Assembly (NCBI GenBank): GCA_000092065.1
Contig: CP000585.1
DNA from: Ostreococcus lucimarinus
Taxonomy: Eukaryota
Direction: 5' to 3' (one strand)
Length of the DNA stretch: 64,000 bases
Made by a program: the position numbers and the translations under genes. Below the pieces are notes generated by a model. The model did no database searches. It saw only the letters and a list, made by a program, of their open reading frames with translations, and had not been told where the DNA came from. Shown here in pieces: positions 48,052-51,776 of this stretch (position 1 is its first letter; every line of letters begins with the position of its first letter).

Positions 48052-49290
48052 TCACGCGGACGCTTCTTTCGCTTCTTCGTCCTCGTTCGTCGCGTCCGCG
48101 ACGGCTTCGGTCGGTTCGATCGGTGCGTCGGCGGGTGCGTCGGCGGTCGGCGCGGCTTCGATCGGCGGCGGCTCGAGATCGTGCAAGCCGTGCGCCTCCA
48201 ACGCGGCTTTCGCTTCGGCCTCCTCCTTCAGCGCGGCGCGCTTCGCGCGCTCGTCGGCTAATTGCCTGGCGGCTTCTTTGTTTGCCTCTTCTTCCTTGAT
48301 CGCGCGCTTGATGAGCTTGGCGCAGTCGTCGTGCCCCTTTTTATTGGCGATTTGGCGCGGCGTCTTCCCCTTGGCGTCGACGGCGGCGGTGTTCGCGCCT
48401 CGCTTGAGGAGCAAACCGACGACGTCTTCGTACCCACCGCTGCACGCGGCGTGAAGTGGCGTCGCACCTTTTCCATCGAGCGATTCGATCTGCATGTCAC
48501 TATCGAGCAAGAGTTCGACGACGTCGTCGTGGCCTTTTCTCGCGGCGAGATGCAGCGCCGTGGCGCCGTTGCCCGCGCGCGTCTCGACGTCGCACCCAGC
48601 CTTGATCAAGCGACTCACCACGTTGACGTGTCCTTTAGAACACGCGACGTGTAACGCGTTGTTATCGCAGTCGTCCTGCGCGTCCAAGTTTGCACCGCTC
48701 TTGATCAAGAGCTTCACCATCTCGACGTTGCCCTTGGCGGCGGCGACGAGCAACGGCGTCGTCGAATCTTCCTCCGACTTCGGCTCGTTCACGTTCGCAC
48801 CGAGCTCGAGGAGTTCGCGCGCGTCGACCACATCCCCGCTCGCCACCGCCGCGTGCAGCGCGCCCGCCTCTTTCGCCCGCGCCGCCTTCTTCTTCAACAT
48901 CTTTTTCGACGGTTCTTTATCCATCCCAAACATTTCCTCCGCCGTCTTCTCCTTCGGCGCGTCCGCCTCGTCCTCGGAGTCCGCGTTCCTGGGCTTAGGC
49001 GGTGGATTATCCCACGAATAACTCGTCGCGTTCCTATTATTCATCCCCCCCGGTCCACCGTCACCGAAATTCGCCGCGCCGCCGCCGCCGCCCGCGCGTT
49101 CGTACGACGCCGCCTTCTCTCCCGCGGGTCCCCTCGACCCCTCCCCGCGCTGTGCGTCCCACTCCGGCGTCGGCGGCATATTATGCGCTTCCGCCTCCTT
49201 CTTCTCGCCGCTTTTCCCTCCGAACATCGCGCCCGCTTTATCCGCGACGCTTCGCGCCGTCGACGTCAATCCATCCTTCAGCGAACTCAA
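48052..49290 (-). CDS. Ankyrin-repeat protein
   Basis: Five or more ANK repeats are present (TPLLVAAAKGNVEMVKLLIKSGANLDA, NALHVACSKGHVNVVSRLIKAGCDVE, ATALHLAARKGHDDVVELLL, ATPLHAACSGGYEDVVGLLLKRGAN, KTPRQIANKKGHDDCAKLI). The N-terminus is Gly-rich and the C-terminus is an acidic/Ala tail. Confidence 0.7.
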   Translation of the reverse strand: MSSLKDGLTSTARSVADKAGAMFGGKSGEKKEAEAHNMPPTPEWDAQRGEGSRGPAGEKAASYERAGGGGGAANFGDGGPGGMNNRNATSYSWDNPPPKPRNADSEDEADAPKEKTAEEMFGMDKEPSKKMLKKKAARAKEAGALHAAVASGDVVDARELLELGANVNEPKSEEDSTTPLLVAAAKGNVEMVKLLIKSGANLDAQDDCDNNALHVACSKGHVNVVSRLIKAGCDVETRAGNGATALHLAARKGHDDVVELLLDSDMQIESLDGKGATPLHAACSGGYEDVVGLLLKRGANTAAVDAKGKTPRQIANKKGHDDCAKLIKRAIKEEEANKEAARQLADERAKRAALKEEAEAKAALEAHGLHDLEPPPIEAAPTADAPADAPIEPTEAVADATNEDEEAKEASA

Positions 49291-49699
49291 ATCGATCCCA
49301 CGACCCTGCGTCGCCCCATCTCCTCGCTGCTTCGTCCCGTTCGCCCCATCGGCCGCGCGTCAGTCTCCATCGCCTCCCCGTCGCGCGTCTCGCCTCTCTT
49401 CGCGCATCGCGTCGCCATCCGCGTCGCGATCCTCGTCGGCGTGGATGGTGTTACGCATCCATCGATTCGCGTCGCGTCGCGTCGCGTCGCGCCGCCGCGC
49501 CGCCGCGCCGTCGTCGCTCGCACCTGGTGCGTCTCGCCCACGCGCTCGTACCCCGCGGTCCAGTTCTTGAGCGCGTCCATCGTCGTCGCGCTGTGCCGCG
49601 CGTCGTCACTCCATCGCGCGCGCGTCGTCGCGCCTCCATGCTCGCGCCGCTCGCGCGCGTCGCGCGTCGCGCGAGGACGACGGCCGAGGACGCGTCGTC

Positions 49700-50857
49700 G
49701 TGGTCGGCGGCGGCGCGGCGGGCGTCGCGTGCGCGCGCGCGCTCGCGGCGACGCGCGAGGTGACGCTGTTCGACGGCGGACGCGCGCCGGGAGGGCGGGC
49801 GTCGACGCGAGAGGGACGAAGAGGGGCGTGGGAGCACGGCGCGCGCTTCGTCGACGTCGAACGCGAACGCGAACGGGAACGCGACGACGACGACGACGAC
49901 GCAGCGGACGCGTGGATGCGAGACAGAGCGCGCGAGGGCGCGTTCGTAAGATGGGAAGGCGCGGTGGTGGCGCTGCGCGGCGGACGCGCGGTGAAGAAAA
50001 GGCTGGGCGCGCGACGGACGGCGACGCCGTCGTTCGGCGCCGTCGCGAAGGCGCTGCTCGAAAAGGTGGATTTGCGCGCGAGCGCGCGCGTCGTCGGGTT
50101 CGACGCGAGCGACGTCGACGGCGCGGGCGTGGTGGTGAAGTATCGAAGCGCGGCGCCGGACGAGGGAGGCGAGACGCGGTCGATGTCGGGGTTCGACGTG
50201 GTGGTGCTGGCGGATAAGAACGCGGCGAACGTCGCGGACGCGTTGGGCGTGGAAGAGCTCGCGCGAGCGATGCGGGAGGTGCCGTCGGTGCCGTCGTTGG
50301 TGTTGATGGTGACTTTGAATCGCGCGCCGGCGATCGAATTCGTGGGGGCTGAGATTGAGAACGACGACGCGTTGAGTTGGATCTCGAACGAGTCGTCGAA
50401 ACCGTCGCGGCGGCGCGACGCCAACTGTTGGGTCGCGCACTCCACCGACGCGTACGCGCGCGCGAAAGTGAATCTCGACACGCGTCCCGGAACTCGCGAG
50501 CACGACGCGTGGATGGACGCGGTCGCGAACGAGATGAGCGAGTCGTTGTTGCGAATTCTTCGCGAAGCCGAGGCGAACGCCGACGTCGACGTCGACGGCG
50601 CTCCGCTGGAGATTACGTACGCGCGCGCCCATCGCTGGGGCGCCGCGTTCCCGGCGGCCGTCGCCGCGGGCGCCGAAAAGTCCAAATTTCTTCGCGCCAC
50701 GTCGACGTCGCCGACCGGTCGCGTCACCACCGTGTACGCCGTCGGCGACTATTGCGTCGAGCACGATAGATTCGGCGGCTTTCGCGCCGCCGTCGCGAGC
50801 GGTCTCGCCTGCGCCGAAGACATACTCGCGACGAAATCGGCGCGTTCAAAACTTTAG
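49700..50857 (+). CDS. FAD/NAD(P)-binding oxidoreductase, renalase/amine-oxidase-like; the first exon is probably upstream (proposed join 49445..49526 + 49689..50857)
   Basis: The track ORF starts at a GTG inside the dinucleotide-binding motif RVVVVGGGAAGVACARALAA. The first in-frame ATG would delete the Rossmann fold. An in-frame TGA lies at 49568-49570. The proposed exon 1 is ATG 49445..49526 (MVLRIHRFASRRVASRRRAAAPSSLAP), followed by a GTGCGT donor and an acceptor AG at 49687-49688. This phase-1 join yields ...LAPGRVVVVGGGAAG. Confidence 0.55.
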   Translation: MVGGGAAGVACARALAATREVTLFDGGRAPGGRASTREGRRGAWEHGARFVDVERERERERDDDDDDAADAWMRDRAREGAFVRWEGAVVALRGGRAVKKRLGARRTATPSFGAVAKALLEKVDLRASARVVGFDASDVDGAGVVVKYRSAAPDEGGETRSMSGFDVVVLADKNAANVADALGVEELARAMREVPSVPSLVLMVTLNRAPAIEFVGAEIENDDALSWISNESSKPSRRRDANCWVAHSTDAYARAKVNLDTRPGTREHDAWMDAVANEMSESLLRILREAEANADVDVDGAPLEITYARAHRWGAAFPAAVAAGAEKSKFLRATSTSPTGRVTTVYAVGDYCVEHDRFGGFRAAVASGLACAEDILATKSARSKL

Positions 50858-50888: not shown

Positions 50889-51776
50889 TTGTTTGTCTCC
50901 GAGCGCCCGTCGTCTTCGCGAGTCCTCACTTCGGTGCTCGCGCGCGCCGTCGTCGCCATGCTCATCCTCTTCGGTCGCCATCCCACCCCTGGTCGCTGTA
51001 AATCCCGCCTCGCCCGCGCGTTGAACTCCGACGAAGCCGCCGCGGCGATCTACGACGCCATCGTGCGCGTCGTCTTGCTCAGAACGTCTCGCGAACGCGA
51101 CGACCGGGACACCGGTGGGTTACAGTTGAAATTTTCGTGCGCGTCCAGCGACGACGTCGCCGCGTGCGAAGCGCTGTTCGCGACCGGTGGGCGCTGGCGA
51201 GCGTGCGCGCGAAACGCGCGCGACGCGGCGGCGATCGAGGTGGAGGCGCAGACGCAGGTGGATGATTTAGGCGCGCGCATCGTCGAGGCGTTTCGCCGCG
51301 AAGTCGACGGCGACGCTCGATCGAGCGATTCCTCGATCGGACGCGCGGTCTGCGTCGCGGGAACGGACGTTCCGGAGTTTTCGAGAGCGCACGCGCTCGA
51401 GGCGCTGGCTCTCGTGGAGGGCGCGTCGAGCGCGGACGCGCCGCGCGTCGCGTTCGGCCCGTCGCGAGACGGCGGCTTTTACTGCGTCGCCGCGCGCGCC
51501 ACGCGCGCTAATTGCGACGCCCTCGAGCGCGCGCTCGCGGGCGTCCGCTGGAGCGCGTCGACGACGCTCGAAGAGTGCGCGCGCAACTGCCGCGCGAACG
51601 GTTTCGACGTGCGCGCGACGATGCCGGAATTATTAGACGTCGACGACGACGGCGATTTGGACGCCCTCCTCGCCGAGCGTCTCGCCGCCGACGACGAGCG
51701 CGAGTCCCCAGCCGTGCGCGACGCGTTCGCGGAAATGGTGCGAATATTAGAGAACAGCCGCGCGGCGCGGCCTTAG
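50889..51776 (+). CDS. DUF2064 (TIGR04282-type, glycosyltransferase-fold) protein
   Basis: MLILFGRHPTPGRCKSRLARALNSDEAAAAIYDAIV matches the DUF2064 N-terminal consensus (lvfaK.P.pGrvKTRL...lg...aa.ly.a.l). The true start may be the internal ATG at 50958. Confidence 0.55.
   Translation: MFVSERPSSSRVLTSVLARAVVAMLILFGRHPTPGRCKSRLARALNSDEAAAAIYDAIVRVVLLRTSRERDDRDTGGLQLKFSCASSDDVAACEALFATGGRWRACARNARDAAAIEVEAQTQVDDLGARIVEAFRREVDGDARSSDSSIGRAVCVAGTDVPEFSRAHALEALALVEGASSADAPRVAFGPSRDGGFYCVAARATRANCDALERALAGVRWSASTTLEECARNCRANGFDVRATMPELLDVDDDGDLDALLAERLAADDERESPAVRDAFAEMVRILENSRAARP

Follow-up and report, generated by a model that had tools for sequence, protein, structure and literature searches.

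How a conserved enzyme can be encoded by an open reading frame (ORF) that has no initiator is the question raised by a locus on contig CP000585.1 of the Ostreococcus lucimarinus reference assembly GCA_000092065.1, of which a stretch of 64,000 nucleotides (nt), hereafter the window, was analysed, with position 1 being its first letter. The ORF codes for a renalase-like, flavin adenine dinucleotide (FAD)-dependent oxidoreductase and extends, in the frame that reads RVVVVGGGAAG, on the plus strand from a GTG at 49700 to 50857, with the stop codon at 50855-50857. With high confidence, this gene seems start-less only because the reference has lost 85 bases rich in guanine and cytosine (GC), while the true start is the ATG at 49638.

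The absence of a start was noticed in an earlier interpretation of the DNA letters (the sequence-only reading), the description of which is confirmed by the window sequence. The nearest in-frame stop 5' of the Rossmann motif is the TGA at 49568-49570, none of the 43 codons between this TGA and the GTG at 49700 is an ATG, and the next in-frame ATG, at 49916 (codon 73), is located 3' of the GxGxxG motif, which would be lost upon initiation there. Equally present are an ATG at 49445, which starts MVLRIHRFASRRVASRRRAAAPSSLAPG... in the same frame and opens an ORF of 41 codons terminated by the very same TGA, as well as G|GTGCGT at 49526/49527 and AG|GA at 49688/49689. None of these single elements is statistically beyond chance. 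At the local GC content of ~67%, a run of 43 codons free of ATG is likelier than not to occur (estimated by us at ~0.7), 30 ORFs of at least 40 amino acids overlap these 4.5 kb with all six frames occupied, the count of GTGCGT plus GTGCGA over both strands of the window is 146, and R/A/S/P-rich, presequence-like peptides come from any frame of this DNA. The meaningful oddity is a biological one, namely that the ORF of a conserved enzyme is without an initiator. The NCBI annotators met the same start problem and left the gene 5'-incomplete, as the public model (ABO95971.1/XP_001417678.1) is a 'predicted protein, partial' of 365 amino acids with VTLFDGG as its first residues, 3' of GxGxxG. The gene, in itself ordinary, was therefore already known as partial in public annotation.

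What distinguishes the window is a single gap. Contigs (designated by L numbers) were gathered via the neighbouring SAC3 gene, by exact protein look-ups and by a DNA pattern scan of public metagenomes; the environmental contigs, up to 841 kb in length, show 99.1-99.5% identity to the window over 21.6 kb. In the alignment with L001, the upstream sequence of the window is identical with the exception of one 85-nt gap in the window. The identical 85-nt segment, GCGTCGCGCGATGGAGGCGCGGACGCGCGCGTCGTCGCCGCGCGCGTCGCCGCGCGCGTCGAGCGCGGCGCGCGCCGTCGCGACG (86% GC), is present on 16 independent contigs of the same species (L001, L004-L012, L021, L022, L023, L025, L026 and L028; L024 and L027 duplicate L004 and L001 and have not been counted separately), and on L013 as well, save two mismatches at the ragged end of this contig. 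On the intact contigs, the 85 nt (GCGTCGCGCGATGGAGG...GCCGTCGCGACG) are found between two copies of the 11-nt sequence GCGTCGCGCGA, and at the junction a shared prefix of 75 nt and a shared suffix of 67 nt overlap by 11 nt at a length difference of 85 nt. The gap is the largest insertion or deletion (indel) in 21.5 kb and does not occur in any of the five fully aligned contigs; it is absent from all other contigs sampled, and a 27-mer specific for the deletion had no match in the metagenome collection. The gene body at 49700-50850 (1,151 nt) shows no difference from most of the environmental contigs.

As 85 equals 3x28+1, the deletion leaves the ATG at 49638 out of frame with the body of the enzyme. 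When the 85 nt are put back, this ATG (MLAPLARVARRA...) is in frame with the Rossmann fold and opens an intron-less ORF of 434 amino acids, which is identical to the protein P0101, recorded on 130 contigs. An ATG in another frame had been pointed out by the sequence-only reading, which placed it at about 49639; it does exist, reading MLAPLARVARRARTTAED..., but its position is 49638. Likewise, the accompanying suggestion of a frameshift relative to this ATG was essentially right about the start and wrong about a 1-nt indel, as the lesion is a deletion of 85 nt. The comparison of orthologue N-termini, which had been recommended as a check, supports this start, as the closest proteins in public metagenomes, P0001, P0003, P0007 and P0101, all begin with MLAPLARVARRAM.AR... 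and continue unbroken into ...REDDGRGRVVVVGGGAAG. The outgroup contig L002 (~90% identical, with 89% amino-acid identity) possesses the homologous coding segment, an in-frame gap of 9 nt apart; since L002 retains the segment, the segment is ancestral and the state of the window is a derived deletion. The deleted 85 nt code for part of the disordered N-terminal extension of the protein and not for the catalytic fold.

Several interpretations of the tract were considered and rejected. That the 85 nt constitute an intron or introner of the wild alleles is ruled out, as there is no GT...AG placement within the 11-nt microhomology and as translation runs in frame through the segment, which L002 keeps as coding sequence. 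The proteins P0002 and P0087, which form a cluster of 385 amino acids, were discarded as carriers of the deletion because L003 and L013 both keep sequence from the 85-nt segment: L013 simply breaks off in the tract, and L003 has artefactually folded back on itself. This latter contig (L003:2918-3001) is palindromic, carrying the gene cluster twice in inverted orientation, and its turning point, a perfect 14-nt palindrome GCCGTCGCGACGGC, is located within the 85-nt segment. With L013 ending in the tract and L003 folding back in it, the tract visibly breaks assemblies. A special hairpin as the cause of the deletion was equally dismissed, as the 126-nt tract folds at -60 kcal/mol and is no stabler than shuffles.

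Can the gene be provided with a start in the window as it stands? The sequence-only reading had proposed a 5' exon at 49445..49526 (MVLRIHRF...LAP) which, upon removal of a 162-nt intron at 49527..49688, is joined to 49689 to read ...LAPGRVVVVGGG. While the ATG at 49445, G|GTGCGT and AG|GA all exist in a matching phase, and while the model even fits the wild alleles, where the 85-nt segment would fall inside the intron, it is highly improbable, as such an intron would excise MLAPLARVARRAM..., a conserved piece of coding sequence that the relatives keep in frame. Every orthologous locus examined is an uninterrupted, ATG-initiated ORF through the Rossmann motif, and the exon and intron positions are not shared by the orthologues in L002, L005-L012, L017, L018 and L020, which are single uninterrupted ORFs. 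Moreover, the ATG at 49445 is not conserved in L002, where the donor G|GTGCGT is G|ATGCGT, a change that is synonymous on the opposite strand (CAC to CAT), and the 162-nt plus-strand intron contains no ACTGAC, CTGAC, CTRAC or CTRAY anywhere. The putative donor, GTGCGTC, agrees with the consensus GTGCGTG in six of seven positions, to which little weight can be given, with GTGCGT occurring 57 times in the window. The candidate exon is in addition antisense to an intron and an exon that are conserved in the divergent ankyrin-repeat gene, and the plus-strand GGTGCGT is simply what the near-palindrome GCACC(T/A)GGTGC at the ankyrin donor shows when read on the opposite strand. No more credible is a correct window sequence in combination with a non-AUG start, or with frameshifting from the ATG at 49638 into the frame of the enzyme. 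The upstream frame is indeed open for 43 codons, with the near-cognate ATC at 49613 and the GTG at 49700 as the sole such codons in frame, but in the structure model the GTG at 49700 falls within the first beta strand of the Rossmann fold, and either mechanism is needed by no relative, as all of them have an ordinary AUG-initiated ORF that makes non-AUG initiation unnecessary. A slippery-site motif was not noticed in 49638-49700, a stretch for which no dedicated search was made.

The loss of the 85 nt is thus the reading to be preferred, and its origin is to be considered separately. Slippage or template switching across the very GC-rich tract, between the two copies of GCGTCGCGCGA, would remove 85 nt and throw the ATG at 49638 out of frame, such that the Rossmann frame would appear without an initiator. 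Given a deletion, its source is somewhat more probably a cloning, polymerase chain reaction (PCR) or finishing artefact of the Sanger-era reference, while a genuine private deletion of the strain CCE9901, truncating or inactivating the gene, is the less probable but substantial alternative. In this latter case, a sub-case that departs from the preferred reading solely in how the lesion arose and, considered on its own, is possible though rather doubtful, the gene would be a recent null or truncated allele with no functional start, or only with the 41-codon out-of-frame ORF from the ATG at 49638. Loss between short direct repeats is a classic spontaneous mutation. A precedent for an artefact comes from O. 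tauri, the Sanger reference of which needed 3,342 indel corrections after resequencing, as against two deletions fixed in culture over about 6,000 generations; these two truncate genes and document that real culture-acquired deletions occur as well (Blanc-Mathieu et al., 2014; PMC4378021). The present data fit an artefact and a real deletion in CCE9901 alike. Natural indels are common, with 8-10 per 21.5 kb among these genomes, which makes a real private deletion plausible. The tract shows no excess structure, its stability against shuffled sequence of the same composition being z = +1.57. Three independent metagenome assemblies (Tara, KOPF15 and JGI 3300048103) show a different deletion of this tract, one of 92 nt, on L014 (1837-2040), L015 and L016; located between the 11-nt repeats CGCGCGTCGTC, at the place of window ~49597-49674 plus the missing segment, it takes away the ATG and the first ~20 codons and is a second start-removing deletion. 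No linked single-nucleotide polymorphism haplotype was found for these three contigs, and the 92-nt deletion may represent a genuine allele, in which case deletions of this tract would happen in nature, or else a PCR or assembly artefact that is reproducible. The finishing standard of the O. lucimarinus genome was also above that of the first O. tauri draft, which makes the analogy with the latter weaker. A real deletion has to be reconciled, in turn, with a remainder of the gene that is undamaged and the same as in wild alleles, with the retention of the gene across the recovered algal orthologues down to 41-51% identity, with the occurrence of the 85-nt deletion in none of the scanned metagenome contigs and with an 86% GC tract that demonstrably disrupts assemblies. 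Unlikely, finally, is the notion that the 130-nt tract of roughly 86% GC is a hot spot of slippage in vivo and that the 85-nt and 92-nt deletions are both real recurrent alleles; if true, versions of a renalase-like NAD(P)H-repair enzyme that are on or off, or altered in their targeting, would segregate in natural Ostreococcus populations.

The species-wide gene is an intron-less nuclear gene for a renalase-like FAD-dependent oxidoreductase of 434 amino acids. Its predicted layout consists of a probably disordered, R/A/S-rich extension of ~45 residues, the strand with GxGxxG, a two-domain fold of the renalase type and a terminal SKL. The label 'renalase-like' is backed by motif, sequence and predicted fold. 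With respect to the motif, the Pfam family PF13450 (NAD(P)-binding Rossmann) matches above the cut-off (E = 9e-8), G52, G54 and G57 are invariant in 19 homologues, and the NCBIfam models gave only generic Rossmann-domain matches, all under the cut-off. On the sequence level, the best solved relative found by phmmer is the bacterial renalase 4zcc (E = 1.9e-8, residues 48-308, ~20% identity), and members of the cluster are named 'renalase' and 'predicted NAD/FAD-dependent oxidoreductase' by the Joint Genome Institute (JGI). An AlphaFold2 model built with the 19 homologues has a predicted local distance difference test (pLDDT) value of 82.3 and a predicted template modelling (pTM) score of 0.82, with residues 1-43 at low confidence and the first beta strand at residues 47-51. 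When this model was compared with the PDB by Foldseek, ranks 1-9 were all renalases (4zcc, 4zcd, 5krq, 3kkj and 3qj4; target template modelling (TM) scores 0.76-0.87), with 4zcc at 0.87 (E = 2e-25) and human 3qj4 at 0.79 (E = 3e-18), followed by protoporphyrinogen oxidases (PPO) and amino-acid oxidases (LAAO) at ~0.5. Renalases oxidize 2- and 6-dihydro-NAD(P) to NAD(P)+, and it is to this family that the algal protein would be assigned by its sequence and modelled fold.

Both termini of the protein are of interest with respect to its location in the cell. All algal orthologues possess an R/A/S-rich extension of 25-60 residues ahead of GxGxxG, and an end of the peroxisomal targeting signal type 1 (PTS1) form [SA][KR]L, as SKL, AKL or SRL, is found in 14 of the 15 algal orthologues aligned, with P0018 being the exception. 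The PTS1-like C-terminus (window 50846-50854) coexists in the algal orthologues with the N-terminal extension, which is disordered in the model, while the bacterial-type homologues in the 19-sequence alignment have neither the extension nor a PTS1-like end. Dual or ambiguous targeting of the renalase-like protein is, as judged from these sequences and the model, possible.

Table 1. Coordinates of the renalase-like gene, the deletion junction and the divergent ankyrin-repeat gene in the window.
Feature	Position	Strand	Basis or remark
True 5' end of the renalase-like gene: ATG 49638, first 8-9 codons (MLAPLARVA...)	49638..49663	+	Orthologue N-termini
Deletion junction, sole remaining copy of the 11-nt direct repeat GCGTCGCGCGA	49664..49674	+	Contig comparison
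Rest of the renalase-like coding sequence (...REDDGRGRVVVVGGGAAG... to ...ARSKL)	49675..50857	+	GxGxxG at ~49703-49720
In-frame TGA upstream of the Rossmann frame	49568..49570	+	Opposite strand: codons 4-5 (AAG AAC) of ankyrin exon 1
Candidate 5' exon of the sequence-only reading, unsupported	49445..49526	+	Antisense to ankyrin intron 1; last 3 nt antisense to exon 1
Ankyrin exon 1: ATG 49580, MDALKNWTAGYERVGETHQ, 19 codons, phase 0, then donor GTGCGAG	49524..49580	-	Conserved
Ankyrin intron 1 (predicted)	49330..49523	-	Donor GTGCGAG at 49523, GACTGACG at 49365-49358
Ankyrin exon 2 (...IDLSSLKDGLTSTARSVADKAG... and ankyrin repeats)	48052..49329	-	Pfam Ank families on orthologous calls

As seen in Table 1, the first part of the renalase-like gene, at 49638..49663, is in the window in a frame that differs from the rest of the gene. 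Upstream of it, on the minus strand, starts a divergent ankyrin-repeat gene, for which a short first exon and an intron are predicted. Exon 1 is identical in 54 of 57 nt between the window and L002, while the flanking intron is far less conserved. The exon 1 peptide and the GTGCG donor are kept in L002, L017, L018 and L020, with the counterparts MDAFKSWTAGYERVGETHQ in L002, MDTLRKWAGGYADVGETHQ in L017 and MESIRNWAGGYERVGEVNK in L018 and L020, such that in three further taxa exon 1 is located just 5' of an ankyrin-like ORF, head-to-head with the renalase-like gene. In every case (G)ACTGAC follows 160-200 nt past the donor, and then an in-frame acceptor into the conserved ...LxSLKDGL.... In the window, the branch motif GACTGACG, of which there are nine copies on both strands of the 64 kb, is found 36 nt ahead of the 3' end of the intron, and the acceptor is a tandem AAG|CAG of the NAGNAG type at 49330/49327(-), with both positions in frame. 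A further in-frame CAG at 49306(-) represents an alternative candidate acceptor.

The predicted ankyrin intron at 49523..49330 hence combines a donor, a branch motif, an acceptor and a conserved exon as they are found in O. lucimarinus introns. Six models of the ankyrin protein (spliced at 49330, 49327, 49306 and 49276, and two unspliced starts) had no exact match in the protein collection, and a homologue search with the ankyrin N-terminus retrieved fragments and read-through calls only, with no spliced evidence among them. The divergent starts at 49580(-) and 49638(+) are 57 nt apart, with 70, 50 and 111 nt in three other taxa; the 5' untranslated regions of the pair must either be extremely short, or the transcripts must overlap.

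Other genes of the window are mentioned for orientation. Among the neighbours, four proteins are identical to CCE9901 entries, namely ABO95970 (LYR), ABO96214 (RING), ABO95973 (SAC3/GANP) and ABO95977, a photosystem I subunit labelled psaG/PSI-G by NCBI and matching the Pfam family PSI_PsaK. Likewise doubtful is the start of the DUF2064 gene (50889-51776, +), located directly 3' of the renalase-like gene: it has been called variously in different contigs, giving 295, 284 or 280 amino acids from TTG or GTG, and its first ATG at ~50958 gives MLILFGRH.... Population indels with respect to the environmental contigs were observed at ~54652, ~59208, 46673, 44730 and 51299, and comprise a unit of 21 nt (GTGCAGCCGAAGACGACGAAA) that varies in copy number in the gene 3' of SAC3/GANP, a (TCT)n run of variable length and one indel each of 16, 9 and 12 nt.

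The value of these results is mainly practical, as they amount to a correction of the annotation. With the 85 nt restored, the renalase-like gene is a single exon of 434 codons from the ATG at 49638, while the public ABO95971.1 is truncated and without the cofactor-binding motif; the ankyrin neighbour is corrected by a short conserved exon 1 (49580..49524) followed by an intron of ~194 nt. In a wider sense, loss between short direct repeats in the extreme-GC coding tracts of prasinophyte genomes can lead to apparently start-less genes and to spurious intron models.

How does the locus compare with what is known? ABO95971.1 derives from the same locus and equals the window gene from VTLFDGG to SKL, but is without GxGxxG and the N-terminal extension, whereas the species-wide protein P0101 comprises 434 amino acids from the ATG at 49638. 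The O. tauri case shares with the present one the genus, a Sanger-era reference and a compact, GC-rich genome, but concerns another species and another assembly than CCE9901 (PMC4378021). Introns of O. lucimarinus outside chromosome 2 that are confirmed by expressed sequence tags have GTGCGTG donors and contain ACTGAC in 87%, WCTRAY in 93% and GACTGACG in 66.5% of cases (Irimia and Roy, 2008; PMC2483917). The predicted minus-strand ankyrin intron resembles these canonical introns by its GTGCGAG donor and GACTGACG, while the plus-strand stretch at 49527..49688 differs from them, having the donor-like GTGCGTC without a branch motif. The renalase-like protein itself resembles the renalases of Pseudomonas (4ZCC, 4ZCD, 5KRQ and 3KKJ) and human (3QJ4) in the N-terminal GxGxxG and the predicted two-domain fold, at an identity of only 14-21%, and is set apart from these solved renalases by its N-terminal extension of ~45 amino acids, acidic or low-complexity inserts (such as ERERERERDDDDDD) and the C-terminal SKL.

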